Virus record (IMG/VR): IMGVR_UViG_2526164631_000048
Span: 1 to 41,666 of that record
DNA from: a virus
Lineage: Duplodnaviria > Heunggongvirae > Uroviricota > Caudoviricetes
DNA length: 41,666 nt
Reading direction: 5' to 3' (one strand)
Every line of letters begins with the position of its first letter. The stretch's first letter is position 1. Shown piece by piece: positions 1,018 to 13,053 of this stretch. The position numbers and the translations under genes are program-made. The notes under the pieces are model-generated. The model searched no databases and was not told where the DNA came from. It saw only the letters and a list, made by a program, of their open reading frames with translations.

Positions 1018-1290
1018 TTAGTTATTTATTTTCCTATTTGTTCTTACCCTCTCCCATTCAATTCTGCCTTCTTCACGCCGTTTATCTATATATTCAGCAA
1101 GATCCTGAATGTTGATGCAGCGCTTTGCTTTCTGTGATGTACCAACACGATAAGTCGGGATCGGCAACTGGCATGCATTTGCTTTCGCTTCTGCTGTGTT
1201 AGGGCTCATACCGAAATACTTTTGGCATACAGCTGACAGCTCAATGTTTGGGGTATTGAATTCAGCCATCAGTAAAAACAAGGTGTTCAT
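1018..1290 (-). CDS. PrtN-family (pyocin activator-like) regulatory protein
   Basis: N-terminus MNTLFLLMAEF resembles PrtN MNTLFLLMAQY; GGAG RBS before ATG at 1290; ORF track start 1317 is GTG. Confidence 0.5.
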   Translation of the reverse strand: MNTLFLLMAEFNTPNIELSAVCQKYFGMSPNTAEAKANACQLPIPTYRVGTSQKAKRCINIQDLAEYIDKRREEGRIEWERVRTNRKINN

Positions 1291-1326
1291 AATTTTCTCC
1301 ATCAAAACCGGCTGCACCCGGGAAAA

Positions 1327-1902
1327 TCATAATTCTGTGCTGGTGGCAGGAATTAATTTCTGCCAGATAGCGGAAACATATTTTGCCTGATGACGGGCAT
1401 CAGCCAGGGCGTTGTGCCGGTCGCCATCGAAAGGCATGTCCATTTTGGGGTCGAATCCGATGGAACGCCCAAGCGTAACGATCGTGCGTACATCGTGGTC
1501 ATTCCAGTACGCCCACGGGCAGATTTGTCCTGCTCGCTCGTAAGCTCCACGTAAAATTACGTTGTCGAAGGTGGCCCCGTTACCCCAGACTTTTAAATAT
1601 TTCGTATTGTCTGCGTGCCGGTTAATGAAATGATTTAGTTCTGAGAGAGCATCGCTGATCGACAAAGTATCATCAATACAGATTGCAGCTCGTGCTTCAG
1701 GGCTTTGTTTCAACCACCACAGGATGGTATCGCCGTCAGGTGTAGCTCCTTGCCCCATAGCACTTTCCAGGCTAACAACCGTATAGAATTCTTGTCCGAT
1801 GTCTCCGGTTTCTGGAGTGAAGAACACCGCGCCAATGGAAACGATCGGTGCATCCTTATTTTTCCCCATCGTCTCAAGGTCGATCATTAAGTTGTTCATC
1901 AC
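1327..1902 (-). CDS. DnaQ-like 3'-5' exonuclease (DEDD family)
   Basis: 191 aa; MIDLETMG Exo I motif near N-terminus; H..ALADA near C-terminus. Confidence 0.7.
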   Translation of the reverse strand: MMNNLMIDLETMGKNKDAPIVSIGAVFFTPETGDIGQEFYTVVSLESAMGQGATPDGDTILWWLKQSPEARAAICIDDTLSISDALSELNHFINRHADNTKYLKVWGNGATFDNVILRGAYERAGQICPWAYWNDHDVRTIVTLGRSIGFDPKMDMPFDGDRHNALADARHQAKYVSAIWQKLIPATSTEL

Positions 1903-2450
1903 TTCACCTCCTGCGGCGGTTCCGGTAGCGGCATCCAGTGAGTTGCTTGCTCAATACCATTACCCGGCTTAATCGTTGCATCTCCGCGCCGAAAGGTGCT
2001 TCCGGTATAGCGTGCGGAGCATATTAGCGGTTCAACCAGAGAGCTATCGAAATTCACCGAAATAAGCACGTTCTGGCCCTTTTCAGGCATTCGATCACTA
2101 CAGATTATCCAACTATCCGGAGTTCCCGGAGAGTTGCCATTTACATCGAAGTTTGGCTCTGCGTCCTGAACCAGGAGGATGTAACCATTCTTGGCTGTAT
2201 CAAGTTCTAACGCCTCGGTGACGGTGCCGAAATAGCGATTACCTAAATCAGCATCACAAGTGCTTACATCAATGGAAACTTCCATGCCTTCGATTAATTC
2301 TGGCAAGTTGTAAGTTTGGCTTATAGGCTCTGCTTCCAGCGATGCCAGTGCAATTTCATAAGCACGGCGCTCAATATTGTCTCGAACGTCCAGGCCGCCT
2401 ATGCGCTCTTTGATTTCTTTAATCAGTTCTTTGTCGGTAAAAGTGGTCAT
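1899..2450 (-). CDS. DUF551-domain phage protein
   Basis: 183 aa; C-terminal W.PLPEPP-type motif; overlaps neighbours by 4 nt. Confidence 0.55.
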   Translation of the reverse strand: MTTFTDKELIKEIKERIGGLDVRDNIERRAYEIALASLEAEPISQTYNLPELIEGMEVSIDVSTCDADLGNRYFGTVTEALELDTAKNGYILLVQDAEPNFDVNGNSPGTPDSWIICSDRMPEKGQNVLISVNFDSSLVEPLICSARYTGSTFRRGDATIKPGNGIEQATHWMPLPEPPQEVK

Positions 2451-2812
2451 GCTGTAGCCCCTTCTTGATATTTTTCAAACCAGAACACAACCGGGTCAGA
2501 TTTCATTTCAACCAATCCCATACGAACCAGCGCCTTGCCTTTCCCGGACGCAAGGAATTCACGACGACCATCACTGATAATTCGCCGATAATCTTCCAGG
2601 CTACTGCAATGCTTGTGCAGATTGCATGGGTGGCATGCCGGAACCATGTTGGATATATCGTCACGTTCCTGGTGAAGCATATTTCCAGCAAAACGAATGA
2701 CCGGTTTTACATGGTCTGCATGCCACTTTTCGCCAAGTTCGCAGCCGCAATAAGCGCAGCGACCACCGAACTTCATGCGCAGTTCTGCACGTTGTTTTTT
2801 CGTCAGTGCCAT
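2447..2812 (-). CDS. HNH endonuclease
   Basis: CAYCG..H.DH..P and CHPCN motifs; AAGGAAAG RBS before ATG at 2812 (ORF track extends to 2902). Confidence 0.7.
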   Translation of the reverse strand: MALTKKQRAELRMKFGGRCAYCGCELGEKWHADHVKPVIRFAGNMLHQERDDISNMVPACHPCNLHKHCSSLEDYRRIISDGRREFLASGKGKALVRMGLVEMKSDPVVFWFEKYQEGATA

Positions 2813-2813
2813 A

Positions 2814-3032
2814 TCAGCTTTCCTTATATGGATTAATTTTATTGTGCAGTGTGTTGAACGACGCCCATACCACGTCGTTATACAATTCAATAACTGGCTC
2901 AATTATTTTCCCGATTGCCCATACCAGAATTAACGGGGATATCGGTATCATCAACACGATAAACAGAATGAGAAACAAAAATTCTGTCGCTCTACTTCTT
3001 CGCGGATATTCTTTTCTGAATAATGTCGGCAT
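2814..3032 (-). CDS. Small hydrophobic (membrane) protein, 72 aa
   Basis: ATG at 3032 preceded by AAGGAGAG RBS; central hydrophobic stretch FLFLILFIVLMIPISPLILVWAIG. Confidence 0.4.
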   Translation of the reverse strand: MPTLFRKEYPRRSRATEFLFLILFIVLMIPISPLILVWAIGKIIEPVIELYNDVVWASFNTLHNKINPYKES

Positions 3033-3033
3033 A

Positions 3034-3225
3034 TCACTCTCCTTTAGTGCGCAAGTGGTTTTCCCAGCGGTTTTGCGCCGCGCTGGGCTTATCTTTGACT
3101 CCCTCTCTGGCAATTCCAGAATATAAGTACAACACCACACGGCGATTGCTAACTCTCAACCACTGGCAGGGATAGCAACGTCTGTATACACGGGAAATAA
3201 GCATCTTTGCTTTACGGTTTTTCAT
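3034..3225 (-). CDS. Small basic protein, 63 aa (paralog of upstream ORF)
   Basis: Starts MKNRKAK; ATGA stop/start overlap with upstream ORF; Arg/Lys-rich. Confidence 0.35.
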   Translation of the reverse strand: MKNRKAKMLISRVYRRCYPCQWLRVSNRRVVLYLYSGIAREGVKDKPSAAQNRWENHLRTKGE

Positions 3226-3398
3226 CTTACTGCGTACCCTTTCTTTCGCCTGTTCTGTGACGCTGTAGGCTTACGCTTTGCGGCAAAAGCCACCTGACCA
3301 AATGGATGGAGTACTGCTATCTTATGGTTGCTGATAACCAGCTCCACCACACGCACAGGTCGCTGTAAAAAAAGTCGTTTTGCTTTACGGTTTTTCAT
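3222..3398 (-). CDS. Small basic protein, 58 aa (paralog of downstream ORF)
   Basis: Starts MKNRKAK; AGGAGAG RBS 7 nt upstream; shares 20-nt 5' sequence and K-P-x-A-x-Q-N-R motif with 3034..3225. Confidence 0.35.
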   Translation of the reverse strand: MKNRKAKRLFLQRPVRVVELVISNHKIAVLHPFGQVAFAAKRKPTASQNRRKKGYAVR

Positions 3399-3570
3399 CG
3401 TTTTGCTCTCCTGCGTTTCTTTGCTGCACGTCGTGCAGCTGCAATACCGGTATGGCGGTGCTTTGGTGCCGGGATGATGTTGTCAGCCATCAGGACATGT
3501 GGCTTTGCAATTAGCGCAGAAGCCCAAAAACGAGTCGGGTACGGTAACAAGTCGATACATGCCACACGCA

Positions 3571-4200
3571 TTACTCACCTTCTTTGATGCGAATGCCAGC
3601 GGCGCGTGGCACATTAACTTCCACGATGCGCACAGTTGGTTTGTACATCTCAATCGCTGTCAGCCAGTCAGCGCCGGTCATATGCTTTTCTGCATCGCCA
3701 TTAGTCCATTGAACCGGCACACCAATAGCTTTCATCGCAATTTCTATTTCCCCGGCAATGGCGCTTTTCCCGCAACCAGTAAAACCAGAGACAACGACAA
3801 GAACTTCGCCTTTGGCTGGTTTTATTTCCCGTGCTTCCAGTTCTGCTATGCGCTTCTCTGCGGCTTCCAGCTTGGCTTCTGCATCTTTGGCTCGCATCTG
3901 CCAGTTGATAGCGATGTCGATAACGCTGTTAGCACAACTGGACTCGTTCTCTTCGGCAGCTTTAGCTTCAGAAAGCTCATCAAGCAATCCAAGAACAACA
4001 GTTGGCGTGGCGAGCGTGATAAAACGCATATTGCTCATATGCTCTTCATCGCTGACCTCATCTCCAGCCTCGACCGCTGCCATGTGCTGAACATAGCCGC
4101 TATCACAGGTATTCCAGATTGCCCCTGCCTCGTAACCCCATTCACCATGTAGTGCTTTTTCTGCCGCCTCACGCAGTGCCTGGTAATTAATTTCGCTCAC
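3571..4200 (-). CDS. Ead/Ea22-like protein
   Basis: 209 aa; coiled-coil AEAKLEAAEKRIAELEA; typical position in lambdoid early-left region. Confidence 0.55.
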   Translation of the reverse strand: MSEINYQALREAAEKALHGEWGYEAGAIWNTCDSGYVQHMAAVEAGDEVSDEEHMSNMRFITLATPTVVLGLLDELSEAKAAEENESSCANSVIDIAINWQMRAKDAEAKLEAAEKRIAELEAREIKPAKGEVLVVVSGFTGCGKSAIAGEIEIAMKAIGVPVQWTNGDAEKHMTGADWLTAIEMYKPTVRIVEVNVPRAAGIRIKEGE

Positions 4201-4889
4201 TGACAGCCTCCTTTGCGAAGCTCTGCAGCGAAATATACAGCTGCGGAAACAATAGCTGCATGTCGGTATTCACCATCAGAAAAGAGAGAATCTCCCTTAA
4301 GTGCATTGACGATACTCTGATGATTTTTTGCCAGCATCTCCACACCCTGCGCCCGTACTTCAGCCAGGAAAGCATCTGTAGCCGGGGTTTGCGGCATACC
4401 TCCGTCTGTTGCGCAGATATACGCATCAGATAGTTCATCCTGCTCGCCATCAAACACGTAGCAACTCTGTGCGATAAATTTATTTAGCCCCGCATTCTCC
4501 GCCGCCAGCGCCGCGCAATTACCCTCCAGCTCTGCAATGCGCTGTTTTGCAGCATCAAGTTCAATCGATAATTTTTCCAACTGCTCTTTATGCTTCTTGT
4601 ATTCCTGATATGCGTGCCAGGACTGACCTTTGCGCACACTATCAGTAATATCAGTAATCTGTTCTGGTGTTAGCGTGGTCAGTGGCTGTGCTGGGAAAAT
4701 CAGCACTTTCCCGGAATCCCAATCAAAACCAGCGTGAATTGACTGAACCTCAACTGAGGGTGTTGAACCAATGCTGCCAGGCGAATGAACAACGATCGTT
4801 ACATCCATATCGCGACGATGGCTGTGGTTGTTGGACAAAATACGATTCACCAACTCAGAAAATTTGGAGAATTTCATGCGGAGCCTCAA
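4197..4889 (-). CDS. Ead/Ea22-like protein (paralog)
   Basis: Coiled-coil AKQRIAELE; shares a near-identical ~50-aa block with 5293..5877. Confidence 0.55.
   Translation of the reverse strand: MRLRMKFSKFSELVNRILSNNHSHRRDMDVTIVVHSPGSIGSTPSVEVQSIHAGFDWDSGKVLIFPAQPLTTLTPEQITDITDSVRKGQSWHAYQEYKKHKEQLEKLSIELDAAKQRIAELEGNCAALAAENAGLNKFIAQSCYVFDGEQDELSDAYICATDGGMPQTPATDAFLAEVRAQGVEMLAKNHQSIVNALKGDSLFSDGEYRHAAIVSAAVYFAAELRKGGCQ
4371..4518. repeat. Direct repeat copy A (~150 bp, near-identical to 5538..5697)
   Basis: Long identical runs seen directly, e.g. gcgcagatatacgcatcagatag...gccccgcattctccgccgccagcgccgcgca. Confidence 0.8.
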
Positions 4890-8471: not shown

Positions 8472-9146
8472 TTAGGCCTTTATTTTGTATCTTCTTGGTT
8501 TTCCTGAGAAAATTACTGTACCAATTATAGAGCAATTACCGTTGATCTTAATGTAAGGTTCAGGCCAGTTTGGGTTTAATGCTTTGAGGTAACGCTGTGT
8601 TCCATCTTCTATCAACCGCTTAAAGGTGGTTTCGCCTGTATCGTGCATCAATGCAATAACGTCGTCACCGTGGCAGGCAGGGACTTCAGGATCTACAAAA
8701 ATCATGTCTCCCGGGCGGTACTCATCAATCATTGAATCACCAATCACCCGCAAGATATAAGTCATTTCGCCACAGGGTACAGGGCAGGGATAAGTTTCTG
8801 CTGTGCTCAAATCAACCTCAGAATAGCCAACTTCTTTCCATGCTCCGGCCTGTACCCATGATATGACAGGGACTAACGTTATTTGTTTGTTAGTAATTGA
8901 AACATCAGGTTTTTTTGTGATGTTTGTTGTCTGGTGTTCTTGATCAAGCCATCCGACAGGCAGGTCGAAACATTTTTCGATGTGCCGTGCCATGCTGTCA
9001 CCGATATTTTTAGTAGCACCATCTCCCATAAACCTGCTGGTCTGGGTTGGCTCGCGATCAATCATGGTGGCAAAGGAAGAATTCCCGCCAACACCATCTC
9101 TCAGTTTTCTGGCGTTAGACCGCCGGATGTCATGGACTGTTTTCAT
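8472..9146 (-). CDS. CI-like prophage repressor (HTH + LexA/S24 peptidase domain)
   Basis: 224 aa; C-terminal GDSM and K..D motifs of S24 self-cleaving repressors; divergent from cro-like gene. Confidence 0.8.
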   Translation of the reverse strand: MKTVHDIRRSNARKLRDGVGGNSSFATMIDREPTQTSRFMGDGATKNIGDSMARHIEKCFDLPVGWLDQEHQTTNITKKPDVSITNKQITLVPVISWVQAGAWKEVGYSEVDLSTAETYPCPVPCGEMTYILRVIGDSMIDEYRPGDMIFVDPEVPACHGDDVIALMHDTGETTFKRLIEDGTQRYLKALNPNWPEPYIKINGNCSIIGTVIFSGKPRRYKIKA

Positions 9147-9236
9147 AACGAAATTAAAACCTTTGTACCGATAGGGTACAAGTATCTTGAAGGTTCATCT
9201 CAATCATGTAATATGTATATCGGAGGTACATATTGT
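9147..9236. promoter_or_regulatory. Immunity-region operator/promoter (OR; pR and pRM candidates)
   Basis: Perfect palindrome TTGTACC-N5-GGTACAA at 9162..9180; candidate pR -35 TTGAAG / -10 TAATAT; GGAGG RBS before cro. Confidence 0.5.
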
Positions 9237-9437
9237 ATGAAAGCGTATTGGGACTCTTTAACCAAAGAACAGCAGGGCGAGTTGGCCGGAAAAGTTGGCT
9301 CAACACCAGGCTACTTACGGCTGGTTTTCAATGGTTATAAAAAAGCCAGTTTTGTGCTGGCTAAAAAACTTGAGCAATGCACGTCAGGTGCAATTACGAA
9401 ATATGACTTAAGACCGGATATCTATCCGAAAGATTAA
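9237..9437 (+). CDS. Cro-like HTH regulator (YdaS family)
   Basis: 66 aa; GGAGG RBS; ends ...LRPDIYPKD as in YdaS-type Cro proteins. Confidence 0.65.
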   Translation: MKAYWDSLTKEQQGELAGKVGSTPGYLRLVFNGYKKASFVLAKKLEQCTSGAITKYDLRPDIYPKD

Positions 9438-9468
9438 CAGAACACCTTCAATTTTTAACCACAGAACG

Positions 9469-10032
9469 ATGAGGCTAACCGTGGGTAAGCATCACTGGAA
9501 AGTAGAAAAACAGCCTGAGTGGTACGTGAAAGCTGTCAGAAAAACTATCGCGGCGTTGCCGGGGGGTTACGCTGAAGCTGCTGAGTGGCTGGATGTAACA
9601 GAGAACGCTTTATTCAACCGCCTTCGTGCAGATGGCGATCAGATTTTCCCGCTGGGATGGGCAATGATTTTACAGCGCGCGGCTGGCACTCACTACATTG
9701 CGGATGCTGTCGCACAGTCTGCTGGTGGGGTGTTTGTATCGCTTCCTGAAATTGAGGAAGTAGAGAACGCCGATATAAACCAGCGCCTGCTGGAAGTCAT
9801 CGAACAGATCGGGAGTTACTCAAAGCAGATTCGTTCGGCAATCGAAGATGGGGTAGCGGAGCCACACGAGCAGACAGCAATTAATGATGAGTTGTATCTG
9901 TCAATTTCGAAGCTCCAGGAGCATGCAGCACTGGTCTACAAAATCTTTTGCGCTCCAGAAAAGAGTGACGCCCGCGAGTGTGCAGCTCCGGGCGTCGTGG
10001 CGTTTTGTGTCTGTGGAGAAACTAACGCATGA
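9469..10032 (+). CDS. Hypothetical regulator at the CII position (possibly YdaT-like)
   Basis: 187 aa ORF directly after cro-like gene; family assignment uncertain. Confidence 0.4.
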   Translation: MRLTVGKHHWKVEKQPEWYVKAVRKTIAALPGGYAEAAEWLDVTENALFNRLRADGDQIFPLGWAMILQRAAGTHYIADAVAQSAGGVFVSLPEIEEVENADINQRLLEVIEQIGSYSKQIRSAIEDGVAEPHEQTAINDELYLSISKLQEHAALVYKIFCAPEKSDARECAAPGVVAFCVCGETNA

Positions 10033-10631: not shown

Positions 10632-10865
10632 ATGGCTACTGTCCCAGCCCTCACTCGTCTGAATGATGAAGACTTACATAAACTCAGTTATGTAACAACT
10701 GCACTACGTGCTCTGCGCAAGGTAACTCTTTCGGATCCCCAGGCGCATCAGGTTTTGGTAGAAACCCTTCTTAACTTGCAGGCTGAACGTATTCGTCTGG
10801 CGGATAAGGCTAATTTTCATATTCACCGTCTCCTGAATATCAGCGGAGGGCATCGTCATGCTTAA
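10632..10865 (+). CDS. Small hypothetical protein (77 aa)
   Basis: Strong AAGGAGG RBS 8 nt before ATG; stop overlaps next start (ATGCTTAA). Confidence 0.4.
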   Translation: MATVPALTRLNDEDLHKLSYVTTALRALRKVTLSDPQAHQVLVETLLNLQAERIRLADKANFHIHRLLNISGGHRHA

Positions 10866-11094
10866 TCCGTTGAGCCTCAATATTCGCCGTTTACTTCAGC
10901 GTAAAAAAACATCAATTCCTACAGTTGGGCAGTGGTACACCACGCCTGCAGGGCATGTTCTACGTGTTAGCCTGGTTGACCGTGAATGCCAGAAGGTGAT
11001 TTGTGAACCGCTGGGCCGTAATTACCGCGTCAGTATGCCGCTTATAGCCTTTCGCTCCGGAAAAAACATGAAGCATCTCGGAGGTGCAGCATGA
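10858..11094 (+). CDS. DUF4222-like small protein (paralog)
   Basis: WY..P.GHVLRVSLVDRECQKVICEPLGRNYRVSMPL pattern similar to 10178..10357. Confidence 0.45.
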   Translation: MLNPLSLNIRRLLQRKKTSIPTVGQWYTTPAGHVLRVSLVDRECQKVICEPLGRNYRVSMPLIAFRSGKNMKHLGGAA

Positions 11095-11909
11095 GTATGG
11101 AGCTGATGGTTAAAGCGATGAAAATTCGAGTGGGTAATCCATTGCGAAAACTGGTTCTGATCAAGCTGGCTGATAATGCCAGCGATCAGGGTGAGTGCTG
11201 GCCCAGCTATCAGCATATCGCTGATCAGTGCGAGATTAGCAAACGTTCTGTGATGAATCATATTGCGGCCCTCTGTGAGTCCGGGCTGGTAAAAAAAGTC
11301 ACCCGGAAAGGTGAAAAAGGTAACTCAAGTAATATCTATCTCCTTCATCTGGATGGTGCAGGAGATTCACTAGGGGGTAGTGCAAATAATTCACTATCTG
11401 GTGCAGCAAATTCACCAGGTAGTGCAGGAGTTGCACCAGGGGGTAGTGCAGGAGATTCACCCAGAACCAGTCACTCTTTTGAACCAGTCAAAGAACCAGT
11501 CAATGAACCAATAGCTGTTGGTGCATCAGTTGATGAGTCCGTGCGAGTTCGTTCAAACCGACCGGAATACTCTCCGGAGTTTGAGCAGGCATGGCTGGCA
11601 TATCCCAAACGTGCTGGTGGCAATTCAAAATCTGCAGCCTTCAAAGCCTGGAAAGCCCGTTTGAACGAGGGGGTAAACCCCGAAACCATGCTGGAAGGTG
11701 TGAAACGCTACGCGGGCTGGGTATCTGCGATGGGTAACAGCGGCACACAATTTGTGAAACAGGCTGTCACGTTCTTTGGTCCGGATCGTCATTTCGAAGA
11801 ATCCTGGGAAGTTCCTGCGATATCTGCAGCCAGACGCGAGGACCCGTACTTCAAAGCCAGTTACGACAACGTGGACTACAGCCAGATCCCGGCAGGATTC
11901 AGGGGGTGA
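11091..11909 (+). CDS. Replication initiator (O-like; N-terminal winged-helix DNA-binding domain)
   Basis: N-terminal LVLIKLADNASDQGECWPSYQHIADQCEISKRSVMNHIAALCESGLV; internal Gly/Ser/Ala linker encoded by iteron-like repeats. Confidence 0.65.
   Translation: MSMELMVKAMKIRVGNPLRKLVLIKLADNASDQGECWPSYQHIADQCEISKRSVMNHIAALCESGLVKKVTRKGEKGNSSNIYLLHLDGAGDSLGGSANNSLSGAANSPGSAGVAPGGSAGDSPRTSHSFEPVKEPVNEPIAVGASVDESVRVRSNRPEYSPEFEQAWLAYPKRAGGNSKSAAFKAWKARLNEGVNPETMLEGVKRYAGWVSAMGNSGTQFVKQAVTFFGPDRHFEESWEVPAISAARREDPYFKASYDNVDYSQIPAGFRG
11355..11515 (+). repeat. Iteron-like tandem repeats inside the initiator gene (candidate ori)
   Basis: Five imperfect ~20-bp repeats (ggtagtgcaggagattcac-like), then 3 perfect GAACCAGTCA 10-mers plus one degenerate copy. 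Confidence 0.55.
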
Positions 11910-12400
11910 TCATGAGTCTTTTGAATGAAGTTCAGAAATTCATTGAAGCCCATCCGGGGTGTACTTCCGGAGACATTGCGGATGCTTTTGCAGGTTACTC
12001 ACGGCAGCGCGTTCTGCAGTCAGCAAGCAAGTTACGTCAGAGTGGGCGTGTGGCTCACCGTTGTGAAGGAGATACACGCAGACATTTCCCACGCCTGACT
12101 GAGAGAGCGCAGGAGCCGGAACTACAACCAGTTCGTGAAACCAGACCTGTGCGCAATTTCTATGTCGGCACTAACGATCCCCGGGTGATTTTGTGCCTGA
12201 CCCGCCAGGCGGAAGAACTGGAGTCCAGGGGCCTATACCGTCGTGCTGCAACGGTGTGGATGGCGGCATTCCGTGAAAGCCACTCCCAGCCAGAACGAAA
12301 CAATTTTCTGGCGCGTCGTGAGCAGTGTTTACGGAAAAGCAGCAAGCGCGCTGTATCGGGTGATGAGTGGTATCTGTCAGGGAATTACGTGGGGGCTTAA
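11906..12400 (+). CDS. PerC-family transcriptional regulator-like protein
   Basis: C-terminal LESRGLYRRAATVWMAAF...RREQCL resembles PerC domain. Confidence 0.5.
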   Translation: MIMSLLNEVQKFIEAHPGCTSGDIADAFAGYSRQRVLQSASKLRQSGRVAHRCEGDTRRHFPRLTERAQEPELQPVRETRPVRNFYVGTNDPRVILCLTRQAEELESRGLYRRAATVWMAAFRESHSQPERNNFLARREQCLRKSSKRAVSGDEWYLSGNYVGA

Positions 12401-13053
12401 TGAGTAATAAATATTGCCAGGAGCTGGTGGAACTGCGGAACAAACCAGCCCATGAACTGAAGGAAGTGGGTGATCAGTGGCGCACGCCGGACAACATTTT
12501 CTGGGGAATTAACACCCTGTTTGGCCCGTTTGTTCTGGATCTGTTCACTGACGGTGATAACGCCAAATGTGCCGCGTATTACACGGCGGAAGACAACGCG
12601 CTGGCGCATGACTGGTCAGAACGCCTTGTGGAGCTTAAAGGTGCTGCCTTTGGTAATCCTCCATACAGCCGCGCCAGTCAGCATGAGGGGCAATACATCA
12701 CCGGCATGCGTTACATCATGAAACATGCCAGTGCCATGCGTGATAAGGGCGGGCGCTATGTTTTCCTGATCAAAGCTGCCACCAGCGAAGTGTGGTGGCC
12801 GGAAGATGCGGACCATATTGCTTTTATTCGCGGGCGTATTGGTTTTGAACTGCCTGCCTGGTTTATCCCGAAGGATGAGAAGCAGGTGCCGACAGGCGCT
12901 TTCTTCGCTGGTGCTATTGCTGTTTTTGACAAGACCTGGAAGGGACCGGCAATCAGCTACATCGGGCGCGATGAACTTGAGGCATGTGGTGAGGCCTTTC
13001 TGGCGCAGGTTCGCCAGCAGGCAGAAAAACTGGTCAGGGAGATGGTGGCATGA
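12400..13053 (+). CDS. Phage DNA N6-adenine methyltransferase (Dam-like)
   Basis: NPPY catalytic motif (FGNPPYSR); TAATG overlap with upstream gene. Confidence 0.7.
   Translation: MSNKYCQELVELRNKPAHELKEVGDQWRTPDNIFWGINTLFGPFVLDLFTDGDNAKCAAYYTAEDNALAHDWSERLVELKGAAFGNPPYSRASQHEGQYITGMRYIMKHASAMRDKGGRYVFLIKAATSEVWWPEDADHIAFIRGRIGFELPAWFIPKDEKQVPTGAFFAGAIAVFDKTWKGPAISYIGRDELEACGEAFLAQVRQQAEKLVREMVA

Follow-up and report, generated by a model that had tools for sequence, protein, structure and literature searches.

A YfdN-type PerC-family gene in the replication module of an SfV-like prophage without a recognisable helicase loader

PerC-family proteins and the gene at 11912-12400

The PerC-family proteins that have been tested act on transcription: PchA, PchB and PchC (PchABC) activate ler and PchE represses csgD (PMC5931665, PMC6265319). 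Activation of LEE1/ler, in the enterocyte effacement locus (LEE), has been shown only for PerC and PchABC (PMC5931665), whereas ler responds little or not at all to PchD and PchE (PMC5931665, PMC6265319). Besides repressing csgD, PchE affects flagella (PMC6265319, PMC7369912). PerC genes are common in Gram-negative phage-inducible chromosomal islands (PICIs), and one PICI PerC-like protein, EcCIMP1_025, represses LEE1 (PMC11773190). The yfdN gene has been termed "the K12 unique PerC homologue" and was removed from ler reporter strains only as a safeguard (PMC5931665). Here we describe a gene of this family at positions 11912-12400 of a 41,666-nucleotide (nt) stretch of virus DNA, IMG/VR record IMGVR_UViG_2526164631_000048 (positions 1 to 41,666; hereafter the window), where it directly follows the gene for the replication initiator.

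The gene as such is ordinary. It and its family assignment are already known, because RefSeq holds the same DNA under the same family name and the literature names yfdN, and it sits in the standard annotated gene order of SfV/ST64B/mEp460-type prophages. The first-pass annotation, made from the sequence alone, had remarked on a PerC-like gene where lambdoid phages usually have a helicase loader; as those prophages share the order, it is no oddity of the window. With slightly more confidence than doubt, we read the gene as a YfdN/SfV-Orf40 ortholog encoding a non-essential accessory PerC-family regulator that acts via protein contacts, and not a helicase loader. The reading as a regulator is supported by the PerC domain, the match to PHROG 1324 and the action of tested family members on transcription.

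A profile search recovered the PerC domain suspected in the C-terminus: PF06069 (PerC) matches amino acids (aa) 98-151 of the product (nt 12203-12364) at E=9.9e-10, its 39 bits exceeding the gathering score of 22.6. The core A..LE..G.RRA...W...C is invariant when the protein is aligned with four other PerC proteins besides PchA and PchE, and identity over the aligned C-terminal segment is 29% to PchA and 32% to PchE, both from E. coli O157 Sakai. PHROG 1324, "transcriptional activator", matches the full length (aa 1-161, E=8e-78). This match, the two-domain build and the slot after the initiator place the protein in the YfdN/SfV Orf40 subfamily. PerC and PchA-E are single-domain proteins of about 90-105 aa, and the window protein, at 162 aa with a winged helix and a linker, does not have that size.

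The window, an SfV-like prophage, encodes an HK97-type head and a contractile tail. Two RefSeq E. coli chromosomes match a 1,310-bp stretch, which covers the initiator and PerC genes, at 100% identity; in one of them, NZ_CP066032.1, the product is WP_072127464.1, "PerC family transcriptional regulator". RefSeq uses this name often together with the gene name yfdN. The same stretch is 98-99% identical to phages mEp460, SfV and Ayreon and to a series of Stx2c phages (Stx, Shiga toxin). By tblastn, protein identity is 94-99% in SfV, SfII, SfIV, mEp460, PhiR phages and Stx2c and Stx2a phages, 67% in ST64B (Sb43) and 45% in Salmonella phage F1055. At least part of the locus is present in 2,614-2,726 of 5,426 complete E. 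coli genomes, about half.

The open reading frame (ORF) that had been listed at 11906-12400 on the plus strand, 164 aa from a GTG start, is present in the window. The most likely start is ATG 11912, with a product of 162 aa and GTG 11906 as an alternative start, because all 22 members of a family alignment (25-83% identity to the window protein) begin there, with M-S/T/N-L/I. A G-rich Shine-Dalgarno-like run lies 5 nt 5' of this ATG. Annotations differ, the Prokaryotic Genome Annotation Pipeline (PGAP) using the GTG start (164 aa) and RefSeq mEp460 the ATG start. The earlier placement directly 3' of an O-like initiator was correct: ATG 11912 begins 2 nt past the stop codon of the 272-aa initiator, TGA 11907-11909. 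At the other end the stop codon overlaps the start of the dam gene (TAATG at 12398-12402). The features of this region are as follows (pLDDT, predicted local distance difference test).

11912-12400, plus strand: YfdN/SfV-Orf40-type PerC-family gene, 162 aa plus stop (Pfam, PHROG, family alignment, RefSeq match)
11912-12091, plus strand: N-terminal winged helix-turn-helix domain, aa 1-60 (AlphaFold2 pLDDT 85-90)
12092-12178, plus strand: variable disordered linker, aa 61-89 (pLDDT below 50 at aa 64-79; length and sequence differ across the family)
12179-12337, plus strand: PerC three-helix module, aa 90-142 (AlphaFold2 pLDDT 90-95)
12338-12397, plus strand: C-terminal tail with conserved W.L.G.y.G (family alignment; weakly predicted hairpin, low model confidence)
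11091-11909, plus strand: replication initiator, 272 aa (Pfam HTH_36 and DnaD_N; PHROG 270 and 1701; hhalign)
11350-11505, no strand assigned: iteron-like direct repeats within the initiator gene (repeat families D1-D3)
11886-11906, plus strand: C-terminal peptide IPAGFRG of the initiator, its last 7 codons (alignment of annotated-phage initiators)
12400-13053, plus strand: Dam methyltransferase (Pfam PF05869, E=9.8e-46)

An AlphaFold2 model of the product, built on the 22-sequence alignment, in which both the N- and the C-terminal domain are conserved, has a mean pLDDT of 80. The protein is predicted to be a two-domain protein, with a winged helix, a disordered linker, a three-helix PerC module and a short conserved tail, a level of detail that this analysis adds to the known family assignment. 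Members of the two-domain family keep the W.L.G.y.G tail, and so do some short PerC proteins. A search of solved structures by sequence returned only chance-level matches to the ClpC N-domain (E about 1). The idea that the N-terminal winged helix was copied from that of the initiator was rejected, as the hhalign probability is only 35% and reflects generic helix-turn-helix similarity.

NCBIfam NF033650 (ANR, AraC negative regulator) aligns to aa 96-142 (E=7.5e-5). At 22.5 bits this alignment falls below the curated cut-off of 32, and for this reason the protein is not assigned to the ANR family. An ANR resemblance has also been pointed out for a PICI PerC-like protein (PMC11773190), and ANR proteins work by contacting transcription factors and H-NS and do not bind DNA (summary in PMC11773190). 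The likeness hints at one superfamily of PerC and ANR protein-binding helical modules. In the mechanism we propose, the PerC module, which is three-helix, tetratricopeptide repeat (TPR)-like and weakly ANR-like, would contact a partner protein, for example a transcription factor, an H-NS-like nucleoid protein or RNA polymerase, and the N-terminal winged helix would anchor the protein on DNA or on a second protein. We infer both this partner and the regulatory target.

Gene order in relatives and the absence of a loader

An exhaustive profile-free search returned full-length two-domain relatives down to about 26-47% identity. Loci of the distant branches were gathered with single distant family members as queries, and two such queries found nothing. 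In every sampled relative the PerC gene stands directly after the initiator gene, with stop and start codons that overlap or lie within a few bases of each other. Among 81 IMG/VR loci from two branches (31-38% identity), 76 have a full-length ORF of 285-317 aa that ends within a few bases of the PerC start; in the remaining five the contig ends within the upstream sequence. The PerC gene likewise directly follows the initiator in SfV, mEp460, ST64B, F1055 and PhiR29_2. The order is the same in Enterobacter, Salmonella and E. coli genomes and further viral contigs. It runs cI, cro, CII (CP76), a small ORF, the initiator, the winged-helix-PerC gene, a methyltransferase, a LexA-like gene, RusA, KilA-N or ANT, DUF968 and Q.

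The same phages lack a recognisable helicase loader. Among the early-region ORFs scanned, Pfam gave no P, DnaC/IstB or DnaB family, and the PGAP annotation of NZ_CP066032.1, which is collinear with the window, has no P, DnaC/IstB or DnaB gene. Both results agree with the earlier remark that no P/DnaC-like loader is visible. Nor was a loader or helicase found in any of the distant-branch loci examined. On the plus strand, no promoter-like site was found within about 1.5 kb up- or downstream of the PerC gene and no terminator-like site between 10459 and 14694. On our reading the PerC gene is a closely packed delayed-early gene of the rightward early operon, probably translationally coupled.

The initiator matches HTH_36 (E=1.8e-11) and DnaD_N (E=3.6e-5) in Pfam and PHROG 270, "replication initiation protein" (E=1e-87), and its aa 145-249 match PHROG 1701, "DnaD-like helicase loader" (E=1.1e-32). 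Compared with a Phg_2220_C-type domain, its C-terminal domain gives an hhalign probability of 96.6%. By these profile matches the initiator appears to combine an N-terminal winged-helix origin-binding domain with a Phg_2220_C-related C-terminal domain, and resembles DnaD-type organisers. Repeats at about 11350-11505, within its gene, comprise GTGCA..ATTCAC-type units, spaced by 24 and 42 nt, as well as three copies of GAACCAGTCA. They are the probable phage origin, as in lambda O, and phage cdtI has additional repeat units at the same place in its initiator gene.

Initiators across the family are mosaics, with at least four unrelated N-terminal domains and two types of C-domain, that of the window and Pfam Phg_2220_C. 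Their C-terminal peptide is nonetheless kept in almost all related initiators examined. I-P-x-G-F-R-G is invariant in 8 of 8 aligned annotated-phage initiators, whatever the N-domain type or downstream gene. Most of 16 IMG/VR initiators keep it, several adding 2-3 residues after the motif, and one (L032) departs from it; it is absent from the L093 and L094 initiators. The motif persists across at least four unrelated N-domains and two C-domain types and with YfdN-like, DnaC-like and LygF genes downstream. In the window the tail is predicted to be disordered (pLDDT below 50), and it looks like a short docking motif for a partner, probably from the host. On this reading the initiator itself probably brings in the host helicase DnaB, together with host DnaC, by means of its C-terminal domain and its disordered IPxGFRG tail.

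The position of the PerC gene invites another account, in which its product is a replication accessory factor: a non-AAA+ adaptor that, at the origin of the phage, aids the initiator in recruiting or releasing host DnaB-DnaC, as a facultative analogue of lambda P that is stimulatory and not strictly essential. We consider this unlikely, although it comes first among the alternatives. The gene lies directly after the initiator in the 76 of 81 IMG/VR loci and in further distant branches, this adjacency outlasts the exchange of initiator domains, and no loader is found anywhere in the lineage. Small loaders such as DciA are also similar in size to the PerC-gene product. The whole early operon is, however, syntenic in these phages, which makes adjacency alone weak evidence. 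In favour of a link to replication, related initiators can have a DnaC-type gene in exactly the same slot: an IstB/DnaC-type gene follows initiators with the same C-domain and the same tail in phage POCJ13, where it matches IstB_IS21 (E=2.5e-18), and in Klebsiella phage ST13-OXA48phi12.4. In Evi and cdtI an initiator of the same C-domain and tail is followed by neither a YfdN-type nor a DnaC-type gene. IPxGFRG is the same whether a YfdN-type gene, dnaC or neither comes next, which shows no covariation with a particular partner and counts against the accessory factor. We rejected covariation of the initiator tail with the downstream gene, since IPxGFRG is invariant with YfdN-like, DnaC-like and unrelated genes alike; a longer EDPxFK.SY.N.DYS stretch of the initiator is not strictly tied to YfdN either.

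The product itself does not resemble a loader. PerC is its sole Pfam match at E<=0.1, with no similarity to lambda P, DnaC/IstB or DciA, and a search for the Walker A motif GxxxxGK[ST] found none. PerC-domain genes also follow primase-helicase genes in satellites. PchE (Sakai ECs1588, 90 aa) is encoded in Sp7 (28601-32045) after a DUF927 primase gene and a single-stranded DNA-binding protein (SSB) gene, and elements of Lonsdalea, Pantoea, Erwinia and Chimaeribacter have PerC genes of 89 aa after Zn_Ribbon_Prim/Toprim_3/DUF927 genes (about 1023-4255). Such satellite-like elements with a primase-helicase need no substitute for a loader. PerC-domain genes are generally placed at the end of replication modules.

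Several neighbours of the gene were also noted. The methyltransferase slot after the PerC gene (12400-13053 in the window; also the related loci L095-L100) is occupied in every case by a DNA methyltransferase, belonging to Dam (PF05869), MT-A70 or MethyltransfD12 or to no assigned family, and such a change of family in a fixed slot points to repeated replacement. A 78-aa ORF at 10858-11094 (PHROG 1153, E=7.8e-41) overlaps the initiator start and is conserved in SfV (orf38), mEp460, cdtI and F1055. The window opens with the left prophage end (positions 1-1000), where the first genes include a YafO-family toxin; in the identical genome, at 8604-9901 of the locus compared, a truncated tRNA-dihydrouridine synthase gene adjoins this end. 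Base composition was uninformative as a test for a foreign gene ("moron"), with a GC content of 0.54 for the PerC gene, 0.50-0.54 for its neighbours and 0.49 for pchA.

Natural deletions of the PerC gene

In phage cdtI the same initiator and dam gene are kept, while 396 bp (132 codons) of the PerC gene are cleanly deleted in frame, leaving a stub of about 30 codons. The junction, at 4078/4079 of the cdtI locus, corresponds to removal of window positions 11990-12385. The same junction was found as a single uninterrupted 96-bp match in all of the 25 E. coli genomes ranked highest and in 4 of 60 records drawn at even intervals from the ranking. Only matches in a single piece were counted, because intact loci also score as at least 80% covered when both halves of the query are joined. 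There are 149 records that match the junction at >=99% identity, and the counts suggest that it is present in roughly 150-175 complete E. coli genomes, about 3% (extrapolated). Serotypes with the junction include O157:H7, O111:H8, O91:H21 and O178:H19, and identical junctions in many serotypes suggest a single deletion allele that spread. In Stx2a_WGPS2 the PerC gene is interrupted by an insertion sequence (IS).

A natural in-frame deletion, present in cdtI and an estimated 150-175 genomes, makes it unlikely that the PerC gene is an essential loader; the deletion in cdtI and about 3% of complete E. coli genomes also weighs against an accessory role in replication. The suggestion that helicase recruitment may differ in this phage had been tied to the PerC gene in the loader slot, and these deletions weaken that tie.

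Natural loss of the gene would suit an exclusion or counter-defence function in a post-replication slot, shielding the phage or lysogen from other phages or host defences, as lambda ren does from its place after the replication genes. We regard this as the least probable of the explanations weighed. In Sakai Sp4 an "exclusion protein" gene lies two genes past the replication pair, and aa 3-68 of the window protein weakly match PHROG 142, "Ren-like exclusion protein" (E=0.0097), but this match has no stretch that passes the threshold alone and the protein is not classed as Ren-like. PADLOC gives no defence-system match, and conservation lies in the PerC module rather than in the N-domain, where the weak Ren match falls.

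Several points weigh against the accessory regulator that we favour. Winged-helix and TPR-like folds are generic and prove neither DNA binding nor a transcriptional role. The retention of the PerC gene after the initiator, despite a swapped N-domain, C-domain or methyltransferase, would also be expected of a replication partner, and the whole phage lineage is without a recognisable loader. Among 47 matches of the junction query in deposited phages the deletion occurs in only the two cdtI entries and the gene is otherwise intact; since nearly all matching phage records keep it, the gene is clearly under selection. For YfdN-type proteins we found no experiment in the literature and no demonstrated function. 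A 2.5-kb UTI89 fragment including "yfdN2" (UTI89_C5098-C5102) was picked in a screen for filamentation-inducing clones, an effect not assigned to yfdN2 specifically (PMC6206680), and ASKA overexpression of yfdN changed glycogen accumulation, again an effect not assigned to the gene specifically (PMC2853380). Dispensability in a working phage leans on cdtI, which reportedly propagates, the title of Asakura et al. 2007 calling it an inducible lambdoid prophage.

PerC relatives, host virulence and known systems

The first-pass annotation had linked the gene to the activation of host virulence loci through its family. The PerC domain is real, but the family is functionally mixed, including PchD, PchE and the LEE1-repressing PICI protein, and the architecture and position of the window gene differ from those of the activators. 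We therefore hold it improbable that the gene was selected for turning on host loci, LEE1/ler among them, as PerC and PchABC do. Apart from the true PerC domain with its conserved core motif, the distribution gives this idea some support: there is an identical copy in an O111:H2 strain and there are close copies in O157:H7 strains and in Stx2c and Stx2a phages, and yfdN was treated as the K-12 PerC homologue when ler reporter strains were made (PMC5931665). Among Pch proteins, however, only the short group-1 members activate ler, PchD and PchE do not, and the PICI homologue represses LEE1 (PMC5931665, PMC6265319, PMC11773190). The extra winged helix and the early, in-operon position of the window gene also contrast with pchA, which in Sakai Sp4 is reverse-oriented in the late region, between antiterminator/tRNA genes and lysis genes and beside IS629; Sp4 has its own replication-gene pair.

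The taxonomic spread of the family is a further objection. YfdN-type genes are found in K-12, Shigella phages, Salmonella, Enterobacter, Citrobacter, Hafnia and Leclercia. Most of these hosts are not known to be LEE carriers. For this reason, judging from the family's distribution, LEE activation cannot be the conserved function of the YfdN-type family.

A broader idea, about as unlikely as the replication accessory factor and only a shade below it, is that PerC proteins were ancestrally tied to the replication modules of temperate phages and satellites. The winged-helix-PerC form would work with the Phg_2220_C-type initiator, where it might aid host DnaB-DnaC recruitment or couple the onset of replication to transcription or to relief of H-NS silencing, and PerC and PchABC would be domesticated, truncated offshoots.

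Although the gene is ordinary, its setting is of modest interest. A very common prophage lineage, to which Stx2c and some Stx2a phages belong, replicates by means of an initiator and has no phage-encoded loader or helicase; the way in which such Stx phages engage the host helicase could bear on the replication and output of toxin phages. The widespread YfdN-type PerC protein is routinely labelled "transcriptional activator", a putative function, and "PerC family" should not be taken to mean "activates virulence genes".

Compared with known systems, the window protein shares the PerC core and PF06069 with PerC, from the EAF plasmid of enteropathogenic E. coli (EPEC), and with PchA, PchB and PchC from prophages of enterohaemorrhagic E. 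coli (EHEC). PchA is a single-domain protein of 104 aa, whereas the window protein adds a winged helix and the W.L.G.y.G tail and is encoded by an early gene within an operon. PchE and the PerC genes of PICI/P4-like satellites (e.g. EcCIMP1_025) have in common with it the PerC module and a place just 3' of replication genes, with which they are co-transcribed (PMC7369912); they differ in being 89-90 aa long, in lacking the winged helix and in following a primase-helicase instead of a Phg_2220_C-type initiator. The ANR family (e.g. Aar) shares a small helical module, but ANR proteins are single-domain and about 54-70 aa long. Lambda P and phage DnaC-type loaders occupy the same slot directly after the initiator and have no sequence or fold similarity to the PerC-gene product, which lacks ATPase motifs and whose gene is naturally lost. 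The closest counterparts are the orthologs YfdN (K-12 CPS-53/KpLE1 prophage), SfV Orf40, ST64B Sb43 and mEp460 gp44, which have the same length and the same two-domain build. They are 95-99% identical in E. coli/Shigella phages and 67% identical in ST64B, and occupy the same slot between initiator and dam. The window copy shows no difference of substance from them and is one allele among them.

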